Of a DNA stretch of 64,000 bases, positions 5,553-55,127 are shown in pieces. The stretch is from the NCBI GenBank assembly GCA_937861125.1, contig CALMAY010000038.1, forward strand, positions 27,942-91,941. The letters are read 5' to 3'. This stretch comes from an uncultured bacterium. Lineage in GTDB: Bacteria; Patescibacteriota; Patescibacteriia; Magasanikbacterales; UBA922. Under the pieces are notes generated by a model. The model ran no database searches. It saw only the letters and a list, made by a program, of their open reading frames with translations, and was not told the DNA's origin. Numbering within the stretch: position 1 is the stretch's first letter; every line of letters begins with the position of its first letter. A program made the position numbers and the translations under genes.

Positions 5553-7745
5553 TTATAATGAAAAAGAGTACACCACATTGGAATCCAAAATGTACACAGT
5601 TTTGTTTTTTTCATCCACACTCATGCCTGTTGGATTTTTCCACTCTGCTGCGGTATATTGTTTGACCAGTTTTCCTGTCTTGTCTAGTACAACAATACGT
5701 TTATTGGTTGGCTCTAAAATGTAGAGATAGTTGACGTCAGTGTAGGTAAATAGTTCTGTTGGATTGCTCAATGCTGGGTCAAGTCCGGTAATAGAAAATG
5801 CTTCTTCAACTCCTGCAACAAATTTTTTGATTTCTCCTGATGCCGTGAGTATATAGACATCACCATCAATAGCAATCGAGACTGCGTCAGCTAGTGTAGA
5901 TCCTTCGCGCTGTGATTGGATCCATGGCGTGCCTTTGTCATAGCCTGTGGCAGTTGGGTTATGTTTATAGATTTGATTATTTTTTGCGTCTAGTATGTAG
6001 GCTCTGCGGTTGTATAGCGCGATGTCATTTGGTGCTGCATCTGTTGTCGGATAGACGATGGTTTTTTGTGAAATGGTTTGGTTGGTTGGATCAAGTGTGC
6101 CGATACTTTGTGCATCTCCGAGGAAAACAATTGTATCATTTTCTTTTGGTGTGTTGGCACGTAAGAGTGGGGGGAGTGAAGAATGATTGCGTGTATCCAC
6201 TGACCCGCCTACTATTGGTAATACATAATGTGTTGAGTCATTGGTACCATATGCAATGAGGGTATTTTGGATACGAGCGAGGCGGGTAGGGGTGGCTGGT
6301 TTTTCTGCTGTACTTGCAATGGTAGCAAGTACAGTAGGGGAAACGATAGTAATATTACGGACTTGATCCAAAAGAATGGCGATAGAATTGAGAAAAGATT
6401 GGCGTGTCTGTCTTTGTTCGTCTGTATCAGTAGGAAGTTCTTTTGCCTTTGTTTGTGCTGTTGTCAGCAAATTGAGCGCACCGCTTCGATCGTTGTATGT
6501 AAACTGTGCTTGTGCTTTTTCATAGGTACTTTGGATGTCACGTATCGAGAGGGTGTATGCTTGTTTTTGTGCTACTTGTTTTTTGTTGGCACTATAGATG
6601 ACTATGCTACTGATAAATATAGTAATAGCGAGTATGGTCCCAATAAGCAGTACTTTACTGATAAGTGGAAGATGGACAAATGATCGTTTTTTCCCCTCAA
6701 TGCTTCTCGTGAGTGTGTGAATAATTTCAGTTCGTCTATTCTTTTGATTTGTAATCAAAAACCAGACGATGACAATAAGTTCTTTGATACCTACCAAGAT
6801 TCGTTCTAATAGCGCCAGCAACATGCTTGAGGCGGTCAAAAGGACGGTACCAATACCACGTAACAAAGAGACGATAAAGGGAACCGTTGTTGTATCTGGT
6901 TCTACTGAGAGTTGTGTGTTTGTTGGTGATATTGGCTGTTGCGGATGAAATGAAAAGAGACTTTTTGCACTTTGAAGCAGTGATGGGTTGAGTGTTTCTG
7001 CTGTGTTGTCCTGTGTTTCTACAAGTTCATTAATAGAGTCTCCTTTTTGTTTGAGATGAGGTGGAATTTTTCCTGTTTTTGGTAAATCGTGTACAGAGAT
7101 AATTTTGGATACAATACCACCAAATGAGATGTCACTACGTAGGTTGGCTAGGACACGCTGGAGATGGGTAGATCCGCTCATTACATCGCGAGCAGTAATA
7201 ATTTTTTGGATTCTATCTTCTGAAAAATAACGCCCAACAGATGGTGTACCAACAAAAAAGTAATCGTGCATGTGTATACTCCCAGAGAGGACAGAAGAAA
7301 ATAGTTGTGTGGGTGTATCATCTGCTTCATTGATAATGGAGAGGTGTTTGTATTCTTGTTTGTGTTGGTAAAATACGTATGCAATCGGAGCGCCGTGATA
7401 CGATAATAAGATAGTACCACCAATCATCACACCTACAACCGCATCTACCGTTCCATCTGAAAGCATGTGGTGACTTTTACGGTTCATCTGTTCAAGGATG
7501 TGTTCAAATAGTATTTCAGGGTTATCAGTATCTTCACTGTAGTATCGGGATTCTATATCATCGATACATTGTTGTAATTCTTCAATTTGTTCTGTGGTTC
7601 CACCCGTAATTTCAATCAATGCAAATAATGAACCTTTTGGTATTTCTGTAGCAGTGGATGGTTCACTAATATGAAGCAAAACATGAGACGTTTTTCGATT
7701 GCGTCCTTCAACAAAAAATTCTTGAATTTGTGGAAACCCAGACAT
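5553..7745 (-). CDS. large membrane protein: N-terminal degenerate PP2C-like domain, TM segments, C-terminal beta-propeller-like (NHL-type) repeats
   Basis: AVVGVMIGGTILLSYHGAPIAYVF resembles the PP2C core strand. Hydrophobic segments at about aa 290-390. C-terminal recurring YILD/YILE...V motifs. Tentative. Confidence 0.35.
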   Translation of the reverse strand: MSGFPQIQEFFVEGRNRKTSHVLLHISEPSTATEIPKGSLFALIEITGGTTEQIEELQQCIDDIESRYYSEDTDNPEILFEHILEQMNRKSHHMLSDGTVDAVVGVMIGGTILLSYHGAPIAYVFYQHKQEYKHLSIINEADDTPTQLFSSVLSGSIHMHDYFFVGTPSVGRYFSEDRIQKIITARDVMSGSTHLQRVLANLRSDISFGGIVSKIISVHDLPKTGKIPPHLKQKGDSINELVETQDNTAETLNPSLLQSAKSLFSFHPQQPISPTNTQLSVEPDTTTVPFIVSLLRGIGTVLLTASSMLLALLERILVGIKELIVIVWFLITNQKNRRTEIIHTLTRSIEGKKRSFVHLPLISKVLLIGTILAITIFISSIVIYSANKKQVAQKQAYTLSIRDIQSTYEKAQAQFTYNDRSGALNLLTTAQTKAKELPTDTDEQRQTRQSFLNSIAILLDQVRNITIVSPTVLATIASTAEKPATPTRLARIQNTLIAYGTNDSTHYVLPIVGGSVDTRNHSSLPPLLRANTPKENDTIVFLGDAQSIGTLDPTNQTISQKTIVYPTTDAAPNDIALYNRRAYILDAKNNQIYKHNPTATGYDKGTPWIQSQREGSTLADAVSIAIDGDVYILTASGEIKKFVAGVEEAFSITGLDPALSNPTELFTYTDVNYLYILEPTNKRIVVLDKTGKLVKQYTAAEWKNPTGMSVDEKNKTVYILDSNVVYSFSL

Positions 7746-8803: not shown

Positions 8804-10300
8804 ATGATCACTGAGTATCAACGGTATCGTTTGTATGAAATATTGCCAGGTCTTTCTATCTGGGGGTCTCTTGTACTTGCCTTGGTATTGAGTATTGTGC
8901 ATCCGGTAGCAATGATTTATTTCATTTTATTGTTTGATGTCTATTGGGTACTTAAAGTACTCAACTATGTGTTATATCTTACAATTGCGTGGCGTCGTTT
9001 TACTCGAGCAAAAGCAATTGATTGGACTAAAAAAATGCGTGTGAGTGCACCTGGATATGAGACCAAAAAACATGTGGTCTTTTTGACGTTATATAATGAA
9101 GAATGGGGGGTTATTAAAACAGCGATGGATAGTTTGGTTGCAAGTGTCTATGATCCACAGGTATTTACGATTGTGGTGGCTGGGGAAGCAAGAAAAGAAG
9201 AACATTGTCGTATGATCTATGCACAGATATGTGATACCTTTCGAGGTGCATTTGCTGATATTGTACTCACTATGCATCCTGCCAATCTCTCTGATGAAAT
9301 TCCTGGAAAAGGCTCTAATCTGCATTACAGTGAGACACAGATGAAACATTATATCGATGAGAAAGGCTGGTCATATGACGATGTGATTGTGACATTGTTT
9401 GATATTGATACCGTGTGTCACGTATCTTATTTTTCATATTTGACGTATCTGTATTGTACACATCCACGTCCAACGCGGAGTTCGTATCAACCAATTGCGC
9501 TTTATAATAATAATATGTGGGAATCTCCTGCGGTGTTGCGTATTATGGCGTTTGGAACCACATTTTGGACGATGATGTCACTTGCTCGTCAAGATGGTTT
9601 AGTTACCTTTTCTTCGCATTCGATGAGTTTTCGAGCGCTTGTGGATGCGGGATTTCATGAAAAAAGAATCGTCTCCGAAGATTCACGTATTTTTTATCAA
9701 TGTTTTTTGGCGTATAATGGTGACTATGAAGTGACGCCAATGTATTCACCTGTATCTATGGATACGGTTCGTGATGATAGCTGGTGGCAAAGTATCAAAA
9801 ACTTGTATCTTCAACAGCGTCGTTGGGCATGGGGTGTAGAGCATGTGCCTTTCTTACTTTGGGAATTTCGTAAAAAGGGTAGTGCTATTCCATTGTGGAA
9901 AAAGATGAAATATCTCTTTTTGGAATGGGAAGGAAAATGGTCGTGGTGTATCGTTGCGATTCTTATTACTGTTGTCGGACGTCTACCACTGTGGGTTTCT
10001 GGTGAAGAGGTTCGTCAGAGTGCATTGTGGTTTAATGCGCCACATGTGCTGGGTTTTTTGATGTCGTTGTCAATGATGGGTATGTTTCTCTCGGCAATTT
10101 TAAGTTTACCGCTGCTTCCACCACGACCTGCATCACACCCACTTCATAAATATATATTTATGTTATTACAATGGCTTTTGTTACCAATATCAATTTTGTT
10201 TGTCAGTGCTATTCCGGGTATTGATGCTGCGACACATTTGATGCGAGGGAAATATCTCGGATTTAATGTGTCACAAAAAAAACGAGCTATTTCTTCTTAG
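8804..10300 (+). CDS. membrane-embedded family-2 glycosyltransferase (processive type)
   Basis: N- and C-terminal TM helices; VVFLTLYNEE, LFDIDT (DxD-like) and QQRRWAWG (QxxRW). Confidence 0.7.
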   Translation: MITEYQRYRLYEILPGLSIWGSLVLALVLSIVHPVAMIYFILLFDVYWVLKVLNYVLYLTIAWRRFTRAKAIDWTKKMRVSAPGYETKKHVVFLTLYNEEWGVIKTAMDSLVASVYDPQVFTIVVAGEARKEEHCRMIYAQICDTFRGAFADIVLTMHPANLSDEIPGKGSNLHYSETQMKHYIDEKGWSYDDVIVTLFDIDTVCHVSYFSYLTYLYCTHPRPTRSSYQPIALYNNNMWESPAVLRIMAFGTTFWTMMSLARQDGLVTFSSHSMSFRALVDAGFHEKRIVSEDSRIFYQCFLAYNGDYEVTPMYSPVSMDTVRDDSWWQSIKNLYLQQRRWAWGVEHVPFLLWEFRKKGSAIPLWKKMKYLFLEWEGKWSWCIVAILITVVGRLPLWVSGEEVRQSALWFNAPHVLGFLMSLSMMGMFLSAILSLPLLPPRPASHPLHKYIFMLLQWLLLPISILFVSAIPGIDAATHLMRGKYLGFNVSQKKRAISS

Positions 10301-14790: not shown

Positions 14791-14804
14791 CTTTTATATT
14801 GTGT

Positions 14805-15884
14805 ATGCGTCGTTATCTTTTCCTTGCTATCATCTGTGCATTACCACTGTTAGGTGCTGGATGTTTATCTGTTGATAAACAGACCAAGACAACTGGTCCA
14901 GCAGGTATGTTTGTTTCTGCAGATAAAGGGGATAACTGGAAGCAGTCTTCCGCAATGCCCACCCTCAAAGGAGTAACGCAACTTGATGGCGTGAGTGTGT
15001 ATCGTATGTTTGAAGATCCAAGTGATCCAAAAGCACTTTACTGGGCATCTCGAGGTGAGGGATTTTTTTATAGTTATGATGACGGTACGACGTGGCAACA
15101 TGCTAAAGCGCCGTTGAATACTGGGATTGTATACAGTATATCAGTTGATCCGGCAGATACGTGTACGGTGTATGTGACAAATGGTAGTAAGCTATACAAA
15201 ACAACAGATTGTAGTCGTAACTGGACTGAAGTATATCGTGAAGATCGTGATATCGCACGCATTGCAACAGTCTATGTGGATAGAATCAAAAATAATCGTG
15301 TATATTTAGGAAAAGCAAATGGAGAATTGCTTGTTTCAAATGATGGTGGTGCGAGTTGGACAATGTTGAAACAATTTACCAAAAAAGCACGTATTACTCA
15401 TCTCGTGGCTGATTCTGTGGATCCAAAAATATTATATCTTGCCACACTCACTGATGGATTGTATCGATCAGTAGATAGTGGGGAGACGTGGACCCATTTG
15501 ATTGACCCAATTAAAAAGTTTTCAAAAGCAACAAATTTTCGTCGATTGGTCGTACATCCAAAACAACAATCAACCCTCTTTTGGGTTTCTGAATATGGAA
15601 TTCTCAAAACAACAAATGGAGGAGATAGTTGGGAAGGGTTGAAATTAGTTACACCTCCTGGGAGTGTTCCAATCTATGCATTTGGTATGAGTGCTCAAAA
15701 TGAAAAAGAGATGTATTATACGACATTTCAAAATGGCCGTACTACATTTTATAAAACCGATGATGGTGGTCAGTCTTGGAGCACGCGCAAGCTTCCAAGT
15801 GGGCAGATACCTACCTTCTTGCGTGTTCATCCAGAAGATGATAGTATCGTCTTTGTTGGGTTTTCAATTCCACCTAAAAAATAA
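14805..15884 (+). CDS. lipoprotein with BNR/Asp-box beta-propeller repeats (Ycf48-like)
   Basis: Lipobox LLGAGC. Seven SxDxGxTW-like boxes, including SADKGDNW, SYDDGTTW, SNDGGASW, SVDSGETW, TTNGGDSW and TDDGGQSW. Confidence 0.65.
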   Translation: MRRYLFLAIICALPLLGAGCLSVDKQTKTTGPAGMFVSADKGDNWKQSSAMPTLKGVTQLDGVSVYRMFEDPSDPKALYWASRGEGFFYSYDDGTTWQHAKAPLNTGIVYSISVDPADTCTVYVTNGSKLYKTTDCSRNWTEVYREDRDIARIATVYVDRIKNNRVYLGKANGELLVSNDGGASWTMLKQFTKKARITHLVADSVDPKILYLATLTDGLYRSVDSGETWTHLIDPIKKFSKATNFRRLVVHPKQQSTLFWVSEYGILKTTNGGDSWEGLKLVTPPGSVPIYAFGMSAQNEKEMYYTTFQNGRTTFYKTDDGGQSWSTRKLPSGQIPTFLRVHPEDDSIVFVGFSIPPKK

Positions 15885-27604: not shown

Positions 27605-28462
27605 ATGCCTATCATTGGTGCTCATGTCTCCGCAGCTGGCGGACTTCATAACTGTTTCAAAAACGCTTCAGATATCGGTGCTCAAGCGTTGCAGATTTTT
27701 GTTTCTTCACCGCGTGCATTTCAGGTCAAGGTGCCAACAGAAGAGATTGTCTCACAATTCAAACAAGCACAAAAAGAGACAAAGCTTGGTCCCGTCTTTG
27801 CACATGCAGCGTATTTGGTTAATCTCGCATCAGCGGATAAAAAAACACAAAACGCTGGGATACAAAGTTTGGTGGCACATCTCTCAATTTGCGAAACACT
27901 TGGGATTGTTGGGCTTGTTTTTCATCTGGGGTCCATTGCTAAAGGTGGAACAAAAGAAGAGGGAATTGCACGTACCGCAGAAGCAATGAACAAGGTACTT
28001 CAAAAAGTACCAGGGAAAAGTTTTTTGATTATGGAAAATTCCTCTGGTGGGGGAGGTAAGCTCGGGAATACACCAGAAGAAATCGGTGAGATGTTTCGTC
28101 TCGCCAACAATTCGCGTATTAAAGTGTGTCTGGATACTGCACATGCGTTTGCGGCGAACGAACTCGGTGAGAGTGTGACGGACAAAACAGTGGATTCGTT
28201 TGTCTCTCGTTGTGACACATCATTTGGGTGGGAGAATGTCGTCTGTATTCACTTCAATGATTCCAAAGTCGCTGCCGGAACATTTACTGATCGTCATGAA
28301 AACATTGGCGAGGGGTTGATTGGGACCAAAGGGTTAAAAGCAATTGCGTTGCATCCAAAAATGAAGAATCTTCCGCTTGTGATGGAGGTGCCTGGATTTG
28401 GAGACGATGGGTCAGATATGGAAAATATACAACGATTGAAAAACATATGTGGAATCAAATAA
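27605..28462 (+). CDS. nfo: endonuclease IV
   Basis: IGAHVS, AHAAYLVNLAS, VFHLGS, MENSSGGG, CLDTAHAFAA and HFNDSK...DRHENIGEG. Confidence 0.85.
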   Translation: MPIIGAHVSAAGGLHNCFKNASDIGAQALQIFVSSPRAFQVKVPTEEIVSQFKQAQKETKLGPVFAHAAYLVNLASADKKTQNAGIQSLVAHLSICETLGIVGLVFHLGSIAKGGTKEEGIARTAEAMNKVLQKVPGKSFLIMENSSGGGGKLGNTPEEIGEMFRLANNSRIKVCLDTAHAFAANELGESVTDKTVDSFVSRCDTSFGWENVVCIHFNDSKVAAGTFTDRHENIGEGLIGTKGLKAIALHPKMKNLPLVMEVPGFGDDGSDMENIQRLKNICGIK

Positions 28463-28890
28463 TACGTACAGTACAAATTTGTTCGTTCATGGTAGGAGTA
28501 TATCTGATAGGGTTGTATTTTACATATATTTATCCTGCGTTTGAGTTGTTTGTTTGGATGAGTCCGCTTATGCATACGTTGGGTGGGCTTGCTACTGCAT
28601 TTACTCTTGATCAGTTCTATCGTCAATGTAGTGTTAGGTGGAAGGTGCGTATTGAACCGGTGGGCGTGTATATGGTGTACCTCATTGCAATGACGGTCTG
28701 TGTGGGGGTGGTGTGGGAGATACATGAGTATCTTCATGATGTGCTCTTTGCTAGTGTTTGGCAACCGGGTATAGGAGATACACTTCTTGATTTGGTGATG
28801 GATACGGTTGGGGCAGTCCTGTATGTACTCTTTTTCTTGACAATAGAGCCTAAAAAGATACAAAAAACAAAAGGGAGAGGTAGGGCTTGA
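28447..28890 (+). CDS. hypothetical 4-TM membrane protein
   Basis: Track ORF with four hydrophobic segments; overlaps the nfo end by 16 nt. No motif recognised. Confidence 0.45.
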   Translation: MWNQIIRTVQICSFMVGVYLIGLYFTYIYPAFELFVWMSPLMHTLGGLATAFTLDQFYRQCSVRWKVRIEPVGVYMVYLIAMTVCVGVVWEIHEYLHDVLFASVWQPGIGDTLLDLVMDTVGAVLYVLFFLTIEPKKIQKTKGRGRA

Positions 28891-28915
28891 CAGATAGAGC
28901 TGTTTTTGCTATACT
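28887..28915 (+). promoter_or_regulatory. promoter TTGACA-N17-TATACT for rpmG and tRNA-Trp
   Basis: -35 at 28887-28892 and -10 at 28910-28915. Confidence 0.65.
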
Positions 28916-28969
28916 AAGGCACATATTGATTTGATTTTCTCTGTTTAGCTTTTTAATTTTTCCACGTGT

Positions 28970-29125
28970 ATGTCACAAGATAACATGATCAAAATGGAGT
29001 GTACGACTTGCAAAATGCCTCGTTATTTCTCCACAAAAAACAAGAAAAAACTCCGCAATCGTCTCGAGCTCAGTAAATACTGCAAAGTCTGCAAAGCGCA
29101 CGTCTTGCACAAAGAGACAAAGTAA
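28970..29125 (+). CDS. rpmG: 50S ribosomal protein L33 (51 aa; below the ORF-track cutoff)
   Basis: Hand translation: [51 protein letters not shown]. It has the CxxC...CxxC and LEL.KYC pattern. Confidence 0.85.
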
Positions 29126-29133
29126 GTTACAAT

Positions 29134-29155
29134 AAAATCCCCGAAAGGGGATTTT
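29134..29155 (+). other. hairpin between rpmG and tRNA-Trp (possible partial terminator or processing signal)
   Basis: AAAATCCCC-gaaa-GGGGATTTT. Confidence 0.4.
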
Positions 29156-29184
29156 GAATATGGGCTCGTACTGAGCTCGTCGAA

Positions 29185-29258
29185 GGGCGCTTCGTATAAT
29201 GGTAGTACTACGGTCTCCAAAACCGTATGCGTAGGTTCGATTCCTACAGCGCCTGCCA
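29185..29258 (+). tRNA. tRNA-Trp (anticodon CCA), CCA encoded
   Basis: Acceptor GGGCGCT/AGCGCCT, anticodon arm ACGGT-CTCCAAA-ACCGT, T arm GTAGG-TTCGATT-CCTAC. Confidence 0.85.
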
Positions 29259-29263
29259 AAAAC

Positions 29264-29291
29264 AAAAAAGTAGCTTAGTTGCTACTTTTTT
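29264..29291 (+). terminator. terminator after tRNA-Trp
   Basis: AAAAAAGTAGC-ttagtt-GCTACTTTTTT. Confidence 0.75.
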
Positions 29292-29461
29292 GTTTTTTTG
29301 TCTGAGTATTTGTTGTGGTAGTATAAGTTATTTTTATTCTGTGGTAGGAGGATGTGTACGGACATGATTTTTGGTATATTGGATATAAAATAAGATGAAT
29401 GTAAAACTCTGTATATTTGTATAGGGTTTTTGCTACATGCACAATAAAAAGATAGGATAAG

Positions 29462-29470
29462 TTATCCACA
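29462..29470 (+). promoter_or_regulatory. perfect DnaA-box consensus TTATCCACA
   Basis: Exact 9-mer within GGATAA-G-TTATCC, about 90 bp upstream of the giant ORF. Confidence 0.4.
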
Positions 29471-29559
29471 AAAACATATTGTAAAGTATAAAACTGTGTT
29501 ATACTTCTACAGATAAATAATTTTATTATCCATCTTTGTTTTTAAGATAGCAGTTTTTT

Positions 29560-32500
29560 ATGTACACACCATTTTCTTGGTTGACTGGAGTAAACCCGAG
29601 ACATATTTTGCGCAGTACACTTGTTGTCCTGTCTTTTTTTATTGTGACAGGCGCAGTGTTGTATGCATATCAGCAGGTATTTGCCTTTTCTGGATCAGGA
29701 TCTGGTACTGCGGAAGATCCGTATATTATCATGACCTGTGAACAGCTCGCAGAAGTTGATAATGATTTAGCAGCACACTATCGTTTGGGTGATTATATTG
29801 GGTGTGGTGCTGAAAATTTTCCACTTGCTCGTGTGATGGATGGATCTGATTTGGACGCTGGGTTTGGCGGGTTTACTGGTGTGTTTGATGGAGATGGGTA
29901 TACAATTAGTTATCAAAAAAATGTACCAGCAGAAATCGATGACCAAAATTACCTCGGGTTGTTTGGGTATCTTAATGGTGCAACAATTAGAGATCTACAT
30001 ATTGTAGCTGGGTGGGAACAGGGACCTGGAGGTACTGATGTGTTGTATGGGGGAAGTTTTGTGGGTTCTCTGGCTGGAAAAGCAGTCAATACGCTGATTA
30101 TTAATGTAAGCGCATCAAATAACATCCAGAGTGCAAATACTACTGGAGGGTTGGTCGGACAGATGAACAACTCTCGTATTGTTGGAGGCTCATTTGAAGG
30201 AAGTATTGATGCCACATCACAAAGTGGTGGGTTGGTTGGTGAGGTATCTGGAAATTATGAGGGTGATTTGCCTGCTATAGAACAGTCATACACATTTGGT
30301 TCTTTTACGGCTGGGTGGGGTGTTGGTAATGTTGGAGGATTAGTTGGGTATATGACGACAGCAGAGATACTCAATTCGTATTCACAGATGGATGTAAATG
30401 CATATAACAATGTTGGTGGTTTGGTCGGAAATGCGATTGGGTCTAGTATTGTAAATGCGTATGCGTCAGGGAGTGTAACTGGAAATAACACTGTCGGTGG
30501 TTTGGTTGGAAGAGTATTTTCAAGTGGTTCGAGTATAGAAAATGCATTTGCAGCTGGTATCATTACTGGGTCTAGTTATATTGGAGGTGTGGTTGGTGGT
30601 GTAGGGGATTTTGGAGGTGATAATCCATCTTTTCTTTCTACGACAAACACGTACTGGGATGCAACGATGACTGGTATGAGTGAATGTAGTGGTTTAGCAG
30701 AAGAAACATGGGCTGGGTGTACGATGATTACACCTGGAGATCCGACGACATATTGGAAATTGGGTGGTGTTGAGCCGATGTTAACTTGGAATACTACAGA
30801 CATTTGGAATCTTGATTCCATGTCTAACTATCCTTGGTTATTTGCTTATACTGAACCTACATTTGCTAGTGGTACTGGTGTTGAAGGTGATCCATATGTT
30901 ATTACAAATTGCACACAACTTCAGTTGATGAACACGGTGCTGGATGCACATTTTGTGTTGGGAAGTGATATCGATTGTTTGGAGACAGAAGGGTGGAATG
31001 AAAATACAGCTGAGTGGGTAGATGGGGTGGTGGATGGAGAGTTGATTCCTGATAGTTACAATGATATTCCTGGTGTATATGGGGCAGTATCAAACAATGG
31101 ATACTATGGTTTTGAGCCAATTGGGTCCGACGGAGATCCGTTTACTGGCGTGTTTGATGGAGATGGATATACGATTAATGATTTGTGGATATTTCGAAAA
31201 GAACAAGATAATGTTGGTTTATTTGGCTATACTGCTGGCGCAACAATTGAAGATTTTGATTTAGTTGCAGCAGACATTGTTGGCGAGTCAAATGTGGGTG
31301 GCGTTGTAGGTACCATGGAAGATACGTCGATTTCTGATGTGACTATATTCGATAGTCATGTGCGAGCATATTTGAGTTATTACGGCGGAGGAATTGCCGG
31401 TATTATGATGGAAAATACTGGAACAAGCACTATCTCATATGTGACTATGTCTGGTGGTGGGGTGCATGGAAGTGGAAATATTATTGGTGGTTTGATTGGT
31501 AAAATGTATGATGGTATTCTCACATATGCTAATTCTTCTGCATCGGTGGATGGTGGATTTAGTATCGGTGGTGCGATTGGAGAAATGTCTACTGGTTCAG
31601 TGTCGTATGTTGATATAACGGGGTCAGTTCATTCAGATCGTACTGAAGGTGAATTTATTGCAAAATCTGGTGAAAATACAGGTGGATTTGTTGGATATAT
31701 GTATGAAGGGACTATCACTAGTTCTACTGCGAGCGGTGATGTGGAGTGTGAGGGTGGAAAGTGTGGTGGATTTATCGGATATGCTGCGAGTGGAAACGCG
31801 CTCATTACAAACTCTTCTGCCTCAGGTGATGTGACTGTTGTTGATGGGTTTTCACCGTCATACATTGGCGGATTTGCTGGGTATGTGGAAAACAGTGGAT
31901 ATAATTGGGAGGATCCGTATGTATATGGCGTTGAATGGGTAAATCTGTCTGCTGCTGGTTCTGTCTTTGCAACCTCTTCTGATTCTGTAGGTGGTTTTGC
32001 TGGGCGTGTCTACGGATATGATCTTTCTTCTGTATCTTCGACAGGTGGTGTGGTAATAGGTGATAGTTATGTCGGTGGTTTTGTTGGTGAGATATTTAAC
32101 TCCTCTGTGTCGTCGAGCACTGCTTCTTCTACTGTTACAGGTATGGATAACTATATTGGTGGCTTTGCTGGTTATTCAGGTTGTCAGAGTCGGTTTACTC
32201 GGTCACAAGCTTTTGGAGATGTGTTTGGTGCTGCTGCGGTAGGTGGTTTTTCTGGCGCAGATGGATGTGAGGGGTATGGATCGACGTTTACAGAGGTGTA
32301 TACAACAGGTGATGTGGTTGCGTCTGTAGTTGCAGCTGGAGGTTTGATCGGAGAAGCATATTTAACTACAGTAGAGCGCTCGTATGCGTTGGGAAATGTT
32401 ACTGCGACAGGAGATAATGTGGGTGGATTGATTGGACAAATGATTGGGTATGATGGGTATGAACATTCGTCTGTGACAGATTCATACGCTCGAGGGAATG

Positions 32501-34527
32501 TTGAATCAACCTCAGGGGTTCAGGTCGGTGGTTTGGTTGGGTATATTGGTGCATATACTGATATGGTCAATGTGTATGCGACAGGTGTCGCATCTGGTAC
32601 GACTGCTGTTGGAGGTCTTTATGGCGGTGGAGACGTTTCCACTGCAGCATTTTGGGATATTGAGACATCTGGTCTTTCTGCGGGGTGTGGATATGGATGT
32701 GACGACACTGCTGTAGGGACAAGCACTGAGCGTATGAAGACACAATCGATGTATACAGATGCTGGCTGGGATTTTGAAACAGTGTGGACATTTGAGGGGG
32801 CAAACATAGTAAATGATGGGTACCCAATTTTACAATTTCAAACAGTAGGAGAAGATACTGAAACATTGACTCCTGAATTACTTTCACCGGAGGATGGTTC
32901 TTCTCACGATGTAGATGCAGAGATGGATATCACTTTTGTGCTTCCTGAGACACCGTTGTCAAATAGTATTACTATTGCATTCTTACCAGAAGTGGGTGAT
33001 CCAATAGTGCTACAGTTGCGTGATGCTGCGCCTGAGGTGGAAAACACCTTTACGATTATACCAAATCAGAATCTTTCTTTGGTTGAAGAGGTGCTTTCTG
33101 CTTCGACAAGCACTATTCCAACTGGTACATATACAATATTACTCGCATACCAAGATGTATTTGGAAACCCTGTTGCTACTGATAGTGTTTCAGAAGTGTT
33201 ATTATACGAATTTCCTGAGTTAGTTATGGGTGAGACAACTGGTATCGGACAGACACAGGCGACGTTGAATGCAAGTGTTGTCGATGGTTCTGTGGAATTG
33301 TTTAGTGAGTATGCATTGTATGGATTTATCGTGAGTGAAAATTCAGATCCAACAGTTGAAAATGCGGTTGCAATACCTGGTCCTGTCGTTATCGAAGAGT
33401 TGGGTTCATATGAATGGATTTTTGGGGATGACGATGGTGAGGTGCTTGAGTGTGGTACGACGTACTATGTGCGTGCACTCGGAGTGTTGATGTATGGTGA
33501 AACTCTCTTGACGAGTGAAAATGTAGATTCGTTTACAACACTTGATTGTGATGAAGAAGAAGGAGAAGAAGAGCCACGTCCTCGTTCTGGTGGTGGGTCT
33601 TCTGTCTCTATTTCTCGTCCTCGTCCAACAGACAACACGACAGCAACTACTGGGGCACTCGTTATCAATAATGGTGATGAGACTACAACAAGTAGAACTG
33701 TTTCTTTGAAAATTAATGCAACAAATGCAGTAGAGATGGCAATCAGTAATAGTCCGCTATTTAGCGATAGTACGTATATCCCATTTACTTCTTCTGCAAA
33801 GCATACACTTAGTGCTGGTGAGGGGCAAAAAACAGTGTATGTAAAGCTTCGTTCTGCTACCGGTGGTACTCTTCTGGTTTTAGATTCGATTCAGTTGTCT
33901 AATGTGGTGAATAAAAAACCATCTGACATTGTTCCTTTAGTACTAACCACCCCAATCCCACAAAACGGCCTCCAATGCACTACTAACCTTGTTCTCACTA
34001 CTCCAGTCAAACTCGGAGCCCCCAACAATCCAAACGACGTCAAACTCCTCGAGCAGTTCCTCAATACCTATGAAGGCACTAACCTCCCAGTCAATGGAAT
34101 ATATGAAACAGCAGACTTCAACGCAGTAGTGAAGTGGCAAGAGAAATATGCCTCTGACATCCTCACTCCATGGGGACTCACCAAAGGCTCAGGATATGTC
34201 TACACCACATCTTTGAAAAAAATCAAAGAGATCCACGAAAAGAACTGTGCAACAGCAGGAACGACACCAGTGCAACCAACCACACCAGTATCAGCAAGTT
34301 GTCTCAACACACAAACAACCCTGACACAAGGTATGACAGGAGCACTCGTTACCACCGCACAAACACTCCTCCAAAAACTCAACTACTTCACTGTCACACC
34401 AACCGGCTTCTTTGGCCCAGTCACCACCGCCTCAGTCAAAGCCTTCCAAAGTGCAAACGGCATTGACCCTGTCGGCTACATCGGACCAGCAACCAGAGCC
34501 AAGCTTAATGAGTTGGGGTGTCGGTAG
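29560..34527 (+). CDS. giant (1655 aa) cell-surface protein: signal anchor, tens of GLUG-type repeats, Ig-like spacer region, two C-terminal peptidoglycan-binding domains
   Basis: N-terminal TM helix. Two modules GxG(T)xxDPY.I..C.QL.......AH..LG.DI.C. Recurring N.GGLVG...S.I.N.YA.G.V motifs ending in YWD/FWDIETSG. C-terminus GMTGALVTTAQTLLQKL..G.FGP.T...VKAFQ..NGI.P.G..GP.T is PG_binding_1-like. Confidence 0.75.
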   Translation: MYTPFSWLTGVNPRHILRSTLVVLSFFIVTGAVLYAYQQVFAFSGSGSGTAEDPYIIMTCEQLAEVDNDLAAHYRLGDYIGCGAENFPLARVMDGSDLDAGFGGFTGVFDGDGYTISYQKNVPAEIDDQNYLGLFGYLNGATIRDLHIVAGWEQGPGGTDVLYGGSFVGSLAGKAVNTLIINVSASNNIQSANTTGGLVGQMNNSRIVGGSFEGSIDATSQSGGLVGEVSGNYEGDLPAIEQSYTFGSFTAGWGVGNVGGLVGYMTTAEILNSYSQMDVNAYNNVGGLVGNAIGSSIVNAYASGSVTGNNTVGGLVGRVFSSGSSIENAFAAGIITGSSYIGGVVGGVGDFGGDNPSFLSTTNTYWDATMTGMSECSGLAEETWAGCTMITPGDPTTYWKLGGVEPMLTWNTTDIWNLDSMSNYPWLFAYTEPTFASGTGVEGDPYVITNCTQLQLMNTVLDAHFVLGSDIDCLETEGWNENTAEWVDGVVDGELIPDSYNDIPGVYGAVSNNGYYGFEPIGSDGDPFTGVFDGDGYTINDLWIFRKEQDNVGLFGYTAGATIEDFDLVAADIVGESNVGGVVGTMEDTSISDVTIFDSHVRAYLSYYGGGIAGIMMENTGTSTISYVTMSGGGVHGSGNIIGGLIGKMYDGILTYANSSASVDGGFSIGGAIGEMSTGSVSYVDITGSVHSDRTEGEFIAKSGENTGGFVGYMYEGTITSSTASGDVECEGGKCGGFIGYAASGNALITNSSASGDVTVVDGFSPSYIGGFAGYVENSGYNWEDPYVYGVEWVNLSAAGSVFATSSDSVGGFAGRVYGYDLSSVSSTGGVVIGDSYVGGFVGEIFNSSVSSSTASSTVTGMDNYIGGFAGYSGCQSRFTRSQAFGDVFGAAAVGGFSGADGCEGYGSTFTEVYTTGDVVASVVAAGGLIGEAYLTTVERSYALGNVTATGDNVGGLIGQMIGYDGYEHSSVTDSYARGNVESTSGVQVGGLVGYIGAYTDMVNVYATGVASGTTAVGGLYGGGDVSTAAFWDIETSGLSAGCGYGCDDTAVGTSTERMKTQSMYTDAGWDFETVWTFEGANIVNDGYPILQFQTVGEDTETLTPELLSPEDGSSHDVDAEMDITFVLPETPLSNSITIAFLPEVGDPIVLQLRDAAPEVENTFTIIPNQNLSLVEEVLSASTSTIPTGTYTILLAYQDVFGNPVATDSVSEVLLYEFPELVMGETTGIGQTQATLNASVVDGSVELFSEYALYGFIVSENSDPTVENAVAIPGPVVIEELGSYEWIFGDDDGEVLECGTTYYVRALGVLMYGETLLTSENVDSFTTLDCDEEEGEEEPRPRSGGGSSVSISRPRPTDNTTATTGALVINNGDETTTSRTVSLKINATNAVEMAISNSPLFSDSTYIPFTSSAKHTLSAGEGQKTVYVKLRSATGGTLLVLDSIQLSNVVNKKPSDIVPLVLTTPIPQNGLQCTTNLVLTTPVKLGAPNNPNDVKLLEQFLNTYEGTNLPVNGIYETADFNAVVKWQEKYASDILTPWGLTKGSGYVYTTSLKKIKEIHEKNCATAGTTPVQPTTPVSASCLNTQTTLTQGMTGALVTTAQTLLQKLNYFTVTPTGFFGPVTTASVKAFQSANGIDPVGYIGPATRAKLNELGCR

Positions 34528-34547
34528 AAATGTTTTTGATAAAATAC

Positions 34548-34573
34548 AAAAACAGCCTTGAAAAGCTGTTTTT
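34548..34573. terminator. bidirectional terminator
   Basis: AAAAACAGC-cttgaaaa-GCTGTTTTT lies between convergent genes. Confidence 0.75.
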
Positions 34574-34580
34574 GTTTTTA

Positions 34581-36377
34581 TTATATACGTCCATATTTTG
34601 CTTCCAAATCACCGAGCTTTTCTTGCACTCCAAACCATTGTGACTCTTTTTCTTTGAGGAGGAGCTCTACTATCTGGAGTTGCTTTGTTTTTTCAATTGA
34701 GTACTTACCGGGATGTTTGAGAAACCATTTATGAATACTATGTTGTTCTTTTTCTAGGTCAGCAACTTCTTCTTCAATATCACGTAACAACTTTTTCTGT
34801 TCTTTAATCTCCTCCTTGAGTCGTGGGCGTTCATCATCTGATGCGAGAGCTGGAATTGTTTTTTCTGGAATAGCTGGTCGTCGATTGCGACCGATGATAT
34901 CACCGAGGTGATAGACATACTCCTCGTATGAGTGGTGATAGCGTTTTACAGATCCATCATTTACCTCAATGATACCTGTGGCTATTTTTTCTACAAAGGC
35001 ACGATTGTGACTGATGAGTAATATGGTACGATTGGTTTCGTGAAGTGCTTGGGCGAGCGACTCTACTGTTTCAAAATCAAGATGGTTGGTCGGTTCATCC
35101 AGTAGTAGAACCTGATCTTTTCCAAGCATTAACCCAGCGAGACACAGGCGTGCTCTCTCACCTCCACTAAGTACTGACAAGGGTTTTTCGATGTCTCCTG
35201 CACGGAACAAAAAATTTCCAGCAATTTCAAGTACATCTTGTGTGCTTCGATGAATACTTCCGGCTCGTTCGAGATATCCAAGGACTGTATCAAACGGATT
35301 GAGCTGATCAGTCATGTGCTGAGCATAGTAGCCAATAGAAACAGTTGGGTGCCATGTGGCGGTGCCAGAGAGTGGGAGGAGGTCTTTGGCGAGTGTACGT
35401 AGGAGTGTTGTTTTGCCTTGTCCGTTGTCTCCGACAATGGCGACATGTTCACCGCGGTGGATTTCAAACGTGATATCACTTGCCACAGGTGACTCTTTGG
35501 TATATCCCATACTGAGTTCTTCTGTTCGCAGTACAATTCCTTTTTTATTTTCACAATTTGGGACGTGTATACGGGTGGTGTGTAGTGGTGCTTCGATTTC
35601 AATTGTTTTGAGTTTTTCAAGATATTTCATCTTTGATTGTGCTTGTGTTGCTTTGCTTGCTTTGGCACGGAAACGGTCGATAAATTCTTGGACATGAGCA
35701 CGTTCTTTCTCAACTTTTTTATTATATTTTTTTTGCATTTCAAGTTGCGCTTTTTTGTATTCTAGATATGCATCAATTTGTCCGGGGTATGAATACGCTC
35801 TACCACGCTCAATATCAAGTGTCTCGGTACAGACATCACGCAAGAATGCGCGATCGTGTGAGATGAGGAGAAAGCTGCCAGTGTATTGTTTCAAAAAATC
35901 TCCTAAAAGCAAGATAGTAGAGAGGTCGAGAAAGTTTGTTGGCTCGTCGAGTAAGAGGACGTTGGGATCTTGGAGCAGCATGCCAACAAGTTTGATACGC
36001 ATACGATACCCCCCAGAGAGGTTTTTGAGTTGGGAGTTGAGATGTGTTTCGTTCAGTTCAAATTTATGTGCGAGTTTGGCCGCCTGCCATGATTCTTTTT
36101 TAGATGTGCGTATTAGATAGGAGAGGGCTGTTTCACTCAGATCCATGTCGTCGTGCTGTGCGATGTGTCCGAGTCGAGCACTGTTGTGAAGTTGTACTGT
36201 CCCGCTATCAGCTTCTTCTTGTCCGAGAATGATGCGAAAGAGGGTTGATTTTCCTGCACCATTTCTCCCGATTACACCGATTTTCTGACGTTCAGAGACG
36301 GTAAAGGTCGCTCCCATGAGGATAGGGCGTTCGCCATAGCTTTTTTGAATGTCATTGACGGCGAGAAGAAGTGCCAT
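34581..36377 (-). CDS. ABC-F family ATPase (two ABC domains, no TM)
   Basis: Start trimmed to MALLLAVNDIQKSYG. Walker A GRNGAGKST and GDNGQGKTT; signatures LSGGYRMR and LSGGERAR; C-terminal coiled coil. Confidence 0.85.
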   Translation of the reverse strand: MALLLAVNDIQKSYGERPILMGATFTVSERQKIGVIGRNGAGKSTLFRIILGQEEADSGTVQLHNSARLGHIAQHDDMDLSETALSYLIRTSKKESWQAAKLAHKFELNETHLNSQLKNLSGGYRMRIKLVGMLLQDPNVLLLDEPTNFLDLSTILLLGDFLKQYTGSFLLISHDRAFLRDVCTETLDIERGRAYSYPGQIDAYLEYKKAQLEMQKKYNKKVEKERAHVQEFIDRFRAKASKATQAQSKMKYLEKLKTIEIEAPLHTTRIHVPNCENKKGIVLRTEELSMGYTKESPVASDITFEIHRGEHVAIVGDNGQGKTTLLRTLAKDLLPLSGTATWHPTVSIGYYAQHMTDQLNPFDTVLGYLERAGSIHRSTQDVLEIAGNFLFRAGDIEKPLSVLSGGERARLCLAGLMLGKDQVLLLDEPTNHLDFETVESLAQALHETNRTILLISHNRAFVEKIATGIIEVNDGSVKRYHHSYEEYVYHLGDIIGRNRRPAIPEKTIPALASDDERPRLKEEIKEQKKLLRDIEEEVADLEKEQHSIHKWFLKHPGKYSIEKTKQLQIVELLLKEKESQWFGVQEKLGDLEAKYGRI

Positions 36378-36426
36378 ATTTTTGCCTATATTAACAGAAA
36401 AAGAGTGTTTCGTAAAGATTACTATG

Positions 36427-36435
36427 TTATCCACA
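36427..36435 (+). promoter_or_regulatory. perfect DnaA-box consensus TTATCCACA
   Basis: Exact 9-mer in the divergent intergenic region between the ABC-F gene and the 36504 ORF. Confidence 0.4.
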
Positions 36436-38381: not shown

Positions 38382-39131
38382 ATGACTTCTTTCGCACTTA
38401 TTCCATTTGCATTTCTCTCTGGTATCCTCATGTTTTTGGCACCTTGTTCATTACCACTTGTTCCAGGGTATTTGGCATTTTTGTCTGGCAATACTGATTT
38501 GCGTATGTGGAATGAACGGACTGTTCGATGGCGGATGGTGCGTCAAGCATGTTTTGTCTCGCTTGGATTTGGTGGTGTATTTATTTTTTTGGGTGTTTTG
38601 TTTGGGCTTGGTGGTGTCGTATTATTGCCATATCGAGAGGTGCTGAGTCGCGTTGGTGGTGTACTAATTATGTTGTTTGGTCTTGCACTGCTGGGAGTGT
38701 TTTCTCTGCCATCATTTTCTTTTGTTTCACGTCTAGTTGCATACAAACAGATACATCCAAACACACCAGGTGCTGCTATATTATTTGGAGGTATTTTGGC
38801 GCTCGGATGGTCGCCATGTGTCGGGCCTATTTTGGGGACTATTTTGTTGCTGGCTGCATCTAGCGCAACGGTTGTTTCTGGCGGCTTCCTTTTGGCTGTT
38901 TTTTCTCTTGGGTTTAGTGTGCCGTTTATTCTCACTGCATTTGGCGCTGGGCATATATCACAATGGTTACAGAGATTCAGCAGTGTACAGAGGGTGCTTA
39001 CGGTTATCGGTGGCATGAGTTTGATCGTCATGGGGTATCTCATGGCTACGAACATGATGGGAGTGTGGAATGGTTTTTTTTATGGATTGTTTGATTTTAT
39101 GTCGTACGATTCATTATTACGTTTTTATTAG
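38382..39131 (+). CDS. ccdA: cytochrome c biogenesis/thiol-disulfide electron transporter CcdA (DsbD-core family)
   Basis: FLAPCSLPLVPGYLAFLSG and GWSPCVGPILGTIL paired Cys motifs; six TM helices. Confidence 0.75.
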   Translation: MTSFALIPFAFLSGILMFLAPCSLPLVPGYLAFLSGNTDLRMWNERTVRWRMVRQACFVSLGFGGVFIFLGVLFGLGGVVLLPYREVLSRVGGVLIMLFGLALLGVFSLPSFSFVSRLVAYKQIHPNTPGAAILFGGILALGWSPCVGPILGTILLLAASSATVVSGGFLLAVFSLGFSVPFILTAFGAGHISQWLQRFSSVQRVLTVIGGMSLIVMGYLMATNMMGVWNGFFYGLFDFMSYDSLLRFY

Positions 39132-53570: not shown

Positions 53571-55127
53571 ATGAACAAACTTGATATTCAAAATATTGTC
53601 GAGGATATCCTTCGACTGGACCCGACACTCGTGTCCAAAAAAGCAGAACTAGAAAAACTTATTACTGCAATGCTTGCGCAAAAACCAAATATTACTGTAG
53701 ATGATGCATTCCTCTCACGTCTGCGCAGTCGTCTGGTGGATCAGATCGAAGAATCTCAGTCAAAATCATTTTCATTTGGTCAATTATTTGTCTCACATAA
53801 ACTGGTATTTGCTGGAGCACTTGGGTGTTTGACTGTGGGGATTGTGTCGGCGTCATTATTGTACTCGCCAACACAACATATAAGAATTGCGTCAGTGAAT
53901 GGATTTGGATCGTTGGTAACATCTCCTGCTACAGGAGAAACAGTCACAGCATTATCTGCTAGTGCGCCCACCTCTTTTTCTGCGAGTGACACGAGTGTTG
54001 GGATGGTGGCGCCAGCAGTATCTCGAGCACAATCAGGTGGGGGAGCGGATAATGCCTCAAAAATGATGATATATCCACCAATTGATGGTGAATATGGTCA
54101 GTATTCCTTTGTGTTGCGCGGTGACGTTGCTGTTCCGCCAGAACAAATGGATGTCTATGGGTATCTGCTATCAAATGAGGTAAATCGTATTGTTGATAAG
54201 GCAATGTCAGGATTGTGGGGTGTTGTGTTTACTGAGCGGAGTGTTGATGTGCGAGGACAGAGTTTGGGTGGAACTATCTCAGTTGATTCCGGTTCATATA
54301 TAGTGTCTGTGGATGCACAACGGGGTGTTTTGTATCTTTCACGATTTGAACCGTACACACCTACCGACATTCAATGTTTTCGTGCGCCTTGTGGTGTATA
54401 CCAACCACTTGAAAAGAAAGATATACCAGCAGACGATACTATCATCGGTTGGGCACAATCTTTTGTTGATGAGTTAGGTATTGATGTGTCATCTTTTGGA
54501 GAACCAAAACTTATTCCTCCAGTAATGTATATGATTATGAATGAATCTGGTACATCTGTAGAATCATTTGGAGAGATGGTTGATGTTATATATCCGCTTG
54601 TATTGGATGACATTATGACAGTAGATTCTTCTGGTGTTTCAAATGTTGGCTTGCGTATTTCTATTAATCTTCGTACACAACAGGTACAAAGTATTTCTGA
54701 ATTACCATTAGGTGACCTCGGTTCTTCTACATATACTCTTGTTACTGATGTTGAACGTATTACACAGGTAGCAGAATTGGGTGGGCAGTATGGTATGTGG
54801 GGTATTAAAACAAAAGAGGCAATTGGATTGGGTGCACCAACACTTGTATATACCTCAATTTGGAAACAAGATAAAAATATACCTGAAGGACGTTCATTGT
54901 TGGTACCAGCGTATCGTTTTGATATTGTATACCCAGATGAAATTCGTGATACGCAATTTATGCAGCAGGCGATTGTTATTCCGTTAGAAAAAGAACTGTT
55001 TGAGCAAGCGGAACGTGATGCGCTCAGTCGTCACAATCAAGGTGAGTATCCGGTCCCGATGCCATTTATCAAGACAATGGAAGCTGGGAGTACTGGTGCT
55101 GAAATACTCGTCGATCCTGCTCAATAA
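53571..55127 (+). CDS. candidate anti-sigma factor: short cytoplasmic N-terminus, one TM helix, large extracytoplasmic domain
   Basis: Starts 1 nt after the sigma-factor stop. Single TM helix LVFAGALGCLTVGIVSASLL. No catalytic motif recognised. Confidence 0.4.
   Translation: MNKLDIQNIVEDILRLDPTLVSKKAELEKLITAMLAQKPNITVDDAFLSRLRSRLVDQIEESQSKSFSFGQLFVSHKLVFAGALGCLTVGIVSASLLYSPTQHIRIASVNGFGSLVTSPATGETVTALSASAPTSFSASDTSVGMVAPAVSRAQSGGGADNASKMMIYPPIDGEYGQYSFVLRGDVAVPPEQMDVYGYLLSNEVNRIVDKAMSGLWGVVFTERSVDVRGQSLGGTISVDSGSYIVSVDAQRGVLYLSRFEPYTPTDIQCFRAPCGVYQPLEKKDIPADDTIIGWAQSFVDELGIDVSSFGEPKLIPPVMYMIMNESGTSVESFGEMVDVIYPLVLDDIMTVDSSGVSNVGLRISINLRTQQVQSISELPLGDLGSSTYTLVTDVERITQVAELGGQYGMWGIKTKEAIGLGAPTLVYTSIWKQDKNIPEGRSLLVPAYRFDIVYPDEIRDTQFMQQAIVIPLEKELFEQAERDALSRHNQGEYPVPMPFIKTMEAGSTGAEILVDPAQ

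Follow-up and report, generated by a model that had tools for sequence, protein, structure and literature searches.

A giant GLUG-repeat protein with a peptidoglycan-binding C-terminus as a candidate surface display protein of a Magasanikbacteria-like bacterium

What might a bacterium of the candidate phyla radiation (CPR) do with a single protein of 1655 amino acids (aa)? The gene in question lies in a 64,000-nucleotide stretch of DNA from an uncultured bacterium (contig CALMAY010000038.1 of assembly GCA_937861125.1), here called the window. The initial annotation, made from the sequence alone, had singled it out as a giant and the largest gene, and it is the largest open reading frame (ORF) of the 64 kb, the runner-up encoding 730 aa. 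The protein consists of an export signal, two GLUG beta-helices, three beta-sandwiches with a linker interrupting them, and two PG_binding_1-type domains (Table 1). On balance we favor reading it as a modular, wall-anchored surface display protein of a Gram-positive-type (monoderm) CPR bacterium, whose heads, the two GLUG modules, would bind an external ligand. Surface display is suggested because homologues bear anchors appropriate to their lineages, the cysteines pair, and the heads diverge far more than the anchor. That the ligand might sit on another cell is suggested because the related beta-helix of the IgA1 proteases contacts an antibody Fab, the anchor is conserved while the heads are diversified, and similar roles have been proposed for other CPR surface proteins.

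The GLUG repeats make up the two modules. Pfam Glug (PF07581) scores 92.7 bits against a cut-off of 20.5 (E 5.7e-27) over 11 stretches, 5 of them in module 1, and the profile search that had been proposed as a check on the family thus came out in its favor. Two heads of the form G-x-G-[TV]-x-x-DPY-[IV]-I-x-x-C-x-QL lie at aa 45-63 and 437-455, agreeing with the two modules first placed at aa ~45 and ~440, and can be aligned with each other along with the repeats that follow. Both modules share one grammar, in which a head that includes a cysteine pair and the stretch FTGVFDGDGYTI is followed by coils of 27-28 aa, a [YF]WDxxxxG motif and a tryptophan-rich cap. The coils center on GG[LFI][VIA]G, and strict GG[LFVIA]xG motifs number 22, with 7 in module 1 and 15 in module 2; the count leaves out GGFTG at aa 103, which is part of the module-1 head. 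FWDIETSG, at first taken to end both runs of repeats, does so for module 2, while module 1 ends in YWDATMTG. The module-2 head carries the insert WNxN..EW..LIPDxY..NNGYxGFxPIG. Within the module-2 subfamily aa 436-770 are kept and aa 772-1030 are variable, and 13 homologues at 42-52% identity share invariant polar residues in VRAYL, VHGSG, SAxVDGG and KxG within aa 436-770. These residues fall on four successive coils (R602 in VRAYL, H636 and S638 in VHGSG, D664 in SAxVDGG, K702 in KxG; window 31363-31665). By positions derived by hand, their offsets from the GGxxG motif are nearly equal (R602 -8, H636 -7, D664 -6, K702 -6), and the polar residues of aa 602-702 may make up a functional site stacked across the coils.

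For aa 43-1100, AlphaFold predicts an all-beta solenoid (pLDDT 79.9, pTM 0.63) in which these residues make up two right-handed GLUG beta-helices. The model was built from a 13-row alignment, with a depth of only 2 in module 1. Confidence is about 90 in module 2, mostly 80-90 at aa 43-372 of module 1, and low at the module-1 cap, aa 381-433. The top Foldseek matches in the Protein Data Bank (PDB) are the GLUG protein BACOVA_03286 (3n6z, E 3.9e-5) and the IgA1 proteases 7uvk, 6xja, 6xjb and 7jgj, all with probability 1.0. PL6 lyases, AlgG, Fap2, Hbp, Ag43 and tailspikes, the last also in a viral library, follow as weaker matches of the generic right-handed beta-helix kind. Like other GLUG proteins, the giant protein has multiple GLUG motifs above threshold and a predicted right-handed helix that superposes on 3n6z. 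The grammar is also shared, with the GxGTxxDPYxIxxxxxL head, FTGxFDGxGxTI, GGLVG coils of ~27-28 aa, [FY]WD..T.G and the GWDF..W..YP cap. It differs from these proteins in having two tandem modules and a pair of PG_binding_1 domains as anchor, and in the module-2 subfamily's head insert (WNxN..EW..LIPDxY..NNGYxGF) and specific invariant coils. GLUG itself is abundant (1782 matches among 8000 candidates scored) and is described as of 'unknown function... may have a role in adhesion' (PMC9723798); the literature on it was found to be nearly empty.

The closest solved and functionally studied relative is the N-terminal beta-helix (~781-1070) of the M26 IgA1 metalloproteases (ZmpA/IgA1P of S. pneumoniae and G. 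haemolysans; 6xja, 6xjb, 7uvk). There the helix binds the substrate Fab and gates the active site (PMC7695701). The likeness is confined to the binding module, however, since the giant protein is without the middle and C-terminal catalytic domains, HExxH, G5 and LPXTG. We rejected an M26 protease, as Pfam gave no match to Peptidase_M26_C or any other peptidase and no HE..H motif occurs in the giant protein. The family scores also stay below threshold (Peptidase_M26_N 13.8 bits against a cut-off of 27.7; NCBIfam ZmpA 25 bits against 3000).

The C-terminus would supply the anchor. The two peptidoglycan-binding-type domains of the initial annotation stand on unequal footing: PGB-B is confirmed by Pfam (PG_binding_1, PF01471, at aa 1594-1649; 58.9 bits against a cut-off of 23, E 5.7e-16), while PGB-A alone stays below the Pfam threshold (E 0.04-0.07) and is supported by profiles and a helical model. 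PGB-B also matches PDB 4lpq and 5tv7 and the wall-binding regions of PHROG endolysins. We take PGB-A for a divergent PG_binding_1 domain because hhalign aligns its family profile to PGB-B (89% probability, E 2.2e-6), because the profile matches 5tv7 (E 1e-5) and the PG-binding domains of endolysins and SleB in the PDB, and because 9/9 family members match PF01471 (best E 8.8e-6; alignment column C98 is invariant). It carries a conserved PWGxxxGxGYVY insert, and its model pLDDT is 84-95. A phmmer search with aa 1466-1655 against 1.84 billion representatives returned 16,671 matches at E <= 1e-3, 215 of them at E <= 1e-30. Proteins of ~200-6588 aa with heads of unrelated kinds carry the complete PGB-A and PGB-B unit at their extreme C-terminus; the heads are LamG/Big_5 in P0121, NHL-type by Pfam in P0124, NosD in P0252, P0255 and P0122, and a repetitive one that looks NHL-like by eye in P0335. 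P0121, found with P0122-P0125 in a word-indexed search with the C-terminal 621 aa (11 matches), comes from a different locus of another genome and has all 560 aa of stalk and anchor. In P0125, as judged by eye, PGB-A sits N-terminal to a hydrophobic segment near the C-terminus, the order to be expected of a domain that binds the cell's own wall.

PG_binding_1 wall proteins such as SleB, the L,D-transpeptidase 4lpq, 5tv7 and phage endolysins have the C-terminal three-helix domain in common with the giant protein. In contrast to them, no wall hydrolase is attached here; the anchor is a two-domain, cysteine-bracketed unit, its first domain with a conserved insert, that ends large multi-domain proteins. 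A phage tailspike or depolymerase origin was rejected, as the neighbors are housekeeping genes, PHROG matches are confined to the PG-binding tail and the fold matches are weak. Other anchors were looked for as well. The LP.T[GAN] sorting motif is absent from the giant protein, whose C-terminus is a PG-binding domain ending in NELGCR, and Pfam found no SLH domain (PF00395) in it. Neither Pfam nor NCBIfam detects a beta-barrel translocator, TPS or ESPR. Accordingly, LPXTG, SLH and type V adhesin classes were rejected, the defining feature of each having been sought in the protein and not found. The type V adhesins (Ag43, Hbp, TibA, Fap2, TpsA/FHA) do use a long right-handed beta-helix as reach-out module, as the weak fold matches recall, but the organism here is of monoderm type and its protein would be anchored via PG-binding domains; some GLUG homologues do carry TPS/ESPR. 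Among the top 120 GLUG homologues, surface anchors comprise ~20 T9SS tails, 15 PG_binding_1 (the query included), 5 TPS/ESPR, 3 dockerin, 2 SLH and 2 PGF-CTERM.

At the other end, the N-terminus has a single hydrophobic stretch by hydropathy, aa 19-37. The proposed membrane or signal anchor holds as far as the hydrophobic segment goes; an anchor is disfavored, and a cleaved Sec signal peptide is the more probable, judging by a conserved junction before the first GLUG head. This junction reads VFA|FSG here and AFA|FSG, IFA|FSG or THA|FAG in homologues, and the form xFA|F(S/A)G also precedes the first head in P0002, P0004, P0029 and P0065. The protein has 18 cysteines that group by spacing into nine putative, sequence-local pairs. 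Homologue alignments show C451/C473, C1473/C1563 and C1581/C1654 to be conserved, C451/C473 being invariant in the module-2 subfamily. Such pairing would fit an extracytoplasmic, disulfide-stapled protein.

Between heads and anchor, what had been described as a non-repetitive beta-rich region is indeed beta-rich, and AlphaFold resolves it into two beta-sandwich domains. The first (aa 1104-1216) matched no Pfam family. The acidic/Pro-Arg linker was correctly recognized; it contains a GAA triplet run at 33553-33572, and comparable linkers occur in P0121, P0122 and P0002. The Ig-like module that follows is a beta-sandwich, as proposed, and its type can be refined to the domain of which P0123 (Pfam Big_13, PF19077) holds 11 tandem copies. 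The signature of this unit is 'INNG..T..R.V.L...A.NA.EM.ISN...F....GEG.KTVYVK', while sandwich 3 itself gives only a weak CARDB match in Pfam. Taken as one string, the three sandwiches resemble, in a generic way, proteins built of tandem Ig/FN3 domains, among them the adhesins SiiE and GhpA.

Table 1. Features of the giant gene and its flanks (window coordinates).
Feature	Position	Strand	Details
Giant gene	29560..34527	+	complete ATG-start ORF, 1655 aa plus stop
Probable Sec signal peptide	29560..29685	+	aa 1-42; n-region with R14, R18; hydrophobic aa 19-37; VFA|FSG
GLUG module 1	29686..30864	+	aa 43-435; C60/C82 head, ~8 beta-helix coils, YWDATMTG, C-terminal cap
GLUG module 2	30865..32859	+	aa 436-1100; C451/C473 head, ~16 coils, FWDIETSG, GWDF..W..GYP cap
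Beta-sandwich 1 (Ig-like)	32869..33207	+	aa 1104-1216; model pLDDT 85-90
Beta-sandwich 2 (FN3-like)	33217..33537	+	aa 1220-1326; C1298/C1330 pair; pLDDT 55-75
Disordered acidic/Pro-Arg/Gly-Ser linker	33550..33645	+	aa 1331-1362 (DEEEGEEEPRPRSGGGSSVSISRPRP...); pLDDT below 50
Beta-sandwich 3 (Big_13-like)	33646..33897	+	aa 1363-1446; pLDDT 92-97
PGB-A	33976..34257	+	aa 1473-1566; divergent PG_binding_1-type helical domain, C1473/C1563 bracket
PGB-B	34300..34524	+	aa 1581-1655; canonical three-helix PG_binding_1, C1581/C1654 bracket; pLDDT 91-97
tRNA-Trp	29185-29258		upstream of giant gene
Hairpin then U run	29258..29297	+	directly after tRNA-Trp; RNA fold dG -20.3 kcal/mol, z -5.73
AT-rich leader	29291..29559	+	269 nt; GC 0.264 vs gene GC 0.436
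Bidirectional terminator hairpin	34537..34583	both	terminator scan; dG -18 kcal/mol, z -6.75

Which parts of the protein differ most can be read from a syntenic relative, contig Ga0654431_0000035 of JGI sample 3300079086 (loci L005 and L006). The neighbors in L005 (Fpg, FtsX, ABC, Nfo, ABC-F, DUF6938, DsbD-like, EamA, GH, amino-acid permease) are 87-94% identical to those in the window. In the slot bounded by tRNA-Trp and ABC-F lie two GLUG/PG-binding genes in tandem, separated by 36 nt. They encode P0004 (1352 aa) and P0002 (2571 aa), so that L005 5906-17716 with its two genes corresponds to window 29270-34527 with one. P0002 agrees with the window protein in its N-terminus and two-module order. 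Where the window protein has its two sandwiches, however, P0002 continues from module 2 into ~1100 aa of NosD/Beta_helix/MAM-type sequence. By region, the giant protein and P0002 are 86% identical in the signal peptide, 93% in PGB-A, 87% in PGB-B and 59% in the Big_13-like sandwich, and only 51% and 47% in GLUG modules 1 and 2. PGB-A is 91-93% identical to those of P0002 and P0004. At the DNA level the pattern is similar: in blastn the background identity of ~80% is lost just past the signal peptide and the first part of head 1 (29460-29984, 74%) and returns at 33994, about the start of PGB-A. Sandwich 1 is found in P0004 (53%) and P0121 (43%) and is absent from P0002; sandwich 2 is found only in P0121 (44%).

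The heads of the relative (47-51%) are no closer to those of the window than are family members on unrelated contigs (42-49%). We infer that the GLUG heads of the two genomes are different, old cassettes rather than diverged orthologues, because their identity is no higher than that. In the fragment P0252 the anchor is 95% identical to that in the window and yet the middle is of NosD/MAM type, which argues that, on the time scale of the anchor's divergence, the middle was exchanged recently. Scanning JGI metagenome contigs with the ABC-F protein for further slots retrieved only distant ABC-F genes (24-33%), and scanning GTDB species genomes with the giant protein retrieved only a 27%-identical GLUG protein from Pirellulales.

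Three further points came out of the comparison. Immediately upstream of the slot, a DUF2238 membrane protein is encoded (window 28447-28890) that is only 59% identical in the relative, against 87-94% for the other neighbors; this may be spill-over from the variable slot, or the gene may have been replaced too. As annotated, P0002 begins with 47 additional aa whose counterpart in the window is non-coding leader, and the true start is probably the methionine of MYTPFAW. Finally, after the amino-acid permease the relative encodes a ~1600-aa protein (L005 25780-27716) with transglutaminase-core, LGFP and EndoU-nuclease (toxin-like) domains, where the window (42364 onward) has BacA/UppP and the CCA-adding enzyme, a second large-secreted-protein difference.

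Under the surface display model, Sec would export the giant protein and signal peptidase would cut after VFA42, with the nine cysteine pairs then oxidizing outside the cell. The C-terminal PG-binding pair would hold the protein non-covalently on the cell's own peptidoglycan, and the sandwiches and linker would act as a stalk pushing outward the two beta-helices, the most diversified parts. The ligand bound by the beta-helices would lie outside the cell, most likely as a polymer or protein on the surface of another one, and binding would bring about attachment or partner recognition. One anchor cassette would be reused under many heads, with heads and middle exchanged at the slot while signal peptide and anchor are kept. 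In these terms the candidate host-attachment adhesin of the initial annotation may be considered a reasonable hypothesis.

The same protein can be read in other ways. If one or both beta-helices formed a catalytic groove in the style of a pectate or alginate lyase, a tailspike depolymerase or a C5-epimerase, we would be dealing with a wall-tethered surface enzyme that degrades or modifies a polysaccharide or protein, either of the partner cell or from the surroundings. Weak fold matches to PL6 alginate lyases, AlgG, pectate lyases and phage tailspikes or depolymerases (E 2e-3 to 0.3) are in keeping with this, as are the invariant R, H, S, D and K at similar GGxxG offsets on successive repeats in aa 436-770, the NosD/Beta_helix (PbH1) repeats inserted in P0002 and P0252, a class common in carbohydrate-active proteins, and the PG_binding_1 domains, which are typical of wall hydrolases and endolysins. 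However, Pfam, NCBIfam and PHROGs detect no catalytic family, the HExxH motif is missing and Peptidase_M26_N stays at half its cut-off; the lyase matches concern the fold alone, with 8-12% identity and low probability, and the nearest solved relatives use the beta-helix for binding and gating, not catalysis (PMC7695701). We consider an enzyme unlikely. The topology could instead be reversed, an uncleaved N-terminal signal anchor sitting in the cell's own membrane, the helices and sandwiches serving as a shaft, and the PG-binding tip gripping the wall of a host. The long n-region (18 aa) ahead of the hydrophobic core would suit an anchor, conserved ends around a variable middle fit either orientation, and the PG-binding domains of highly expressed Paceibacteria proteins have been proposed for host attachment (PMC10936435). 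This arrangement is quite improbable given that the V-x-A|F site directly before the first head is kept in homologues whose signal peptides otherwise differ, that the hydrophobic segment of P0125 lies, by eye, C-terminal to PGB-A, and that the cassette is always extreme C-terminal under very different heads, the usual pattern of a self-wall anchor.

Strong divergence of the heads and cassette replacement against a 90% identical genomic background would also be expected of an envelope coat or decoy, an abundant structural or protective layer whose head diversity reflects escape from phages or predators. SLH anchors, which are typical of S-layer-associated proteins, do occur in the close GLUG relatives P0005 and P0074, and the gene is its own transcription unit between strong terminators. 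But no self-assembly or lattice features were identified, the gene is single-copy within the window, and a beta-helix on a stalk is an architecture typical of reach-out binding proteins; a coat, too, seems improbable to us. As for the gene being a repeat assembly chimera or an unexpressed pseudogene, it is repeat-rich and metagenomic, and its leader is without a clear Shine-Dalgarno sequence or sigma-70 promoter. Yet its 4968-nt frame of 1655 codons has no internal stop, and the repeats are old and DNA-diverged, hence not collapse-prone. All domains fold confidently in models, and the homologue at this slot is intact in the relative too. An artefact is unlikely because identical sequences recur: the ENA assemblies ERZ724532, ERZ724549 and ERZ724552 (L001-L003) are 100% identical in DNA to the window over 15-25 kb, and the protein (P0001) is present residue-for-residue on 11 contigs. 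We regard a chimera or dead gene as highly improbable.

Some points nevertheless weigh against a wall-anchored display protein with variable binding heads. Within the subfamily, the first half of module 2 (aa 436-770) shows strong conservation that includes invariant polar residues, which may point to an enzymatic site, or to another conserved one, instead of a binding face that varies. The comparison of heads draws on one syntenic relative (L005) plus the fragments P0252 and P0122. Signal-peptide cleavage is predicted from the -3/-1 rule only, and GLUG is a family without an established function (PMC9723798).

Wall-anchored display would place the protein among the large surface proteins of CPR bacteria. 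Such proteins, also in PG-binding and Ig-like combinations, have been proposed as host-attachment factors (PMC13059738, PMC10936435), and epibiotic growth of Southlakia is stated to require adhesins (PMC10633639). The giants of Absconditicoccaceae, the PG-binding and Ig-like proteins of Paceibacteria and the Southlakia adhesins share with ours a length of >1500 aa, an export signal, Ig/FN3-type domains and a CPR genome. In the Paceibacteria case PG-binding domains are shared as well (PMC10936435). The domains listed in the three reports are FN3, Ca-stabilised adhesin repeats, concanavalin A, integrin and PKD; GLUG heads are not named in the passages covered, the comparison being one of descriptions.

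The gene stands as a transcription unit of its own. Both the AT-rich leader of about 270 bp and the strong flanking terminators of the initial annotation were borne out, with 26% GC in the leader against 44% in the gene and z scores of -5.7 upstream and -6.75 downstream. None of 200 shuffles was as stable as the upstream hairpin, which is likely the intrinsic terminator of the rpmG/tRNA-Trp unit, shielding the giant gene from upstream transcription; the downstream hairpin is common to the giant gene and the convergent ABC-F gene (34581-36434, - strand). The last ~100 nt of the leader are conserved with that of the relative, within the blastn match given above. The Rfam scan returned nothing except the tRNA, and so no riboswitch or known RNA family in the leader, and the promoter scan found no sigma-70 site of >=9/12 matches there. 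In window 28887-29258 we observed, ahead of rpmG/tRNA-Trp, a near-consensus promoter-like site (TTGACA, 17 nt, TG-TATACT; 11/12 matches). Between it and the tRNA lies rpmG (L33; 28970-29125), whose 51 codons fall under the 60-aa threshold of the ORF listing. Inside the giant gene, the repeats show an 81/84-nt periodicity (equal to 27-28 aa) at 63-88% identity, consistent with old repeats that have diverged at the DNA level. No tandem arrays, recent repeat expansion or slippage-prone tracts were found in its DNA apart from the short GAA run, and a contingency locus was rejected on these grounds. The 64-kb window contains no paralogue of the giant protein.

The organism was first described as a small-genome and possibly episymbiotic bacterium, and DnaK supports a small-genome CPR organism. 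The nearest relatives are 91-96% identical, and the taxon-named matches (75-79%) are all Candidatus Magasanikbacteria, bar one Nomurabacteria and one 'Patescibacteria group', which places the organism in Patescibacteria (CPR), close to Magasanikbacteria. The window is chromosomal and of housekeeping content, with TsaD, GlyRS, M16 peptidase, TIM, Fpg, FtsX/ABC and Nfo-type endonuclease, and further with DsbD-like, EamA, CCA-adding enzyme, YidC, HrcA, DnaK/DnaJ, RecJ, LepA, MurJ and CorA. The immediate neighbors of the giant gene are FtsX/ABC, the Nfo-type endonuclease, rpmG, tRNA-Trp, ABC-F and the DsbD-like gene. The MurJ and UppP genes in the same window indicate that the organism makes its own peptidoglycan.

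Several other genes of the window deserve a remark. A DsbD_TM/CcdA-like thiol-disulfide transporter gene (38382-39131) lies 4 kb downstream of the giant gene with its many cysteine pairs, an arrangement kept in the relative; the proximity may be a coincidence. A BNR/Sortilin-Vps10-type beta-propeller protein (14799-15884) has an N-terminal lipoprotein-like signal (LLGAGC) and is likely another surface protein. BNR/Sortilin domains and PG_binding_1 also occur in one chain in the GLUG homologue P0019. Three ORFs match no Pfam family at E <= 1e-5, namely 5553-7745 (-, 730 aa), 8804-10300 (+, 498 aa) and 53571-55127 (+, 518 aa); several membrane spans are predicted in the 498-aa and 730-aa products and one in the 518-aa product.

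Much of this is of an already known kind. The GLUG family, of whose surface proteins the giant protein is in itself an ordinary example, is very large and poorly characterised, PG_binding_1 anchors are common, and large surface proteins are recognised in CPR genomes. What is new is modest: the two-domain, cysteine-bracketed reusable anchor, the conserved first coils of the module-2 subfamily, and the signs of cassette exchange at a fixed slot. Taking the last point further, the tRNA-Trp/ABC-F slot might be a hot spot of cassette exchange by which the partner or host specificity of this Magasanikbacteria-like lineage is decided; we offer this idea tentatively and regard it as possible but doubtful. 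Old, deeply diverged alleles of the GLUG heads and the middles (Ig/FN3 versus NosD/MAM) would be swapped by recombination among tandem paralogues and other genes that bear the anchor, and through these swaps the signal peptide and the cysteine-bracketed PG anchor would be retained. The conserved functional site of an uncharacterised GLUG subfamily would then be the invariant R-H-S-D-K ladder on the first coils of module 2.

What is understood of how CPR cells recognize partner cells and stay attached to them comes mostly from Saccharibacteria, with type IV pili and a few adhesins implicated. With its export signal, two heads, stalk and wall anchor, the giant gene is a well-delimited attachment candidate in a Magasanikbacteria-like lineage. 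The heads should determine its specificity, because anchor and signal peptide stand at the genome-background level of identity and the heads have diverged to the level seen between unrelated organisms. The reusable anchor cassette, in turn, could serve to find the other surface proteins that this organism displays.

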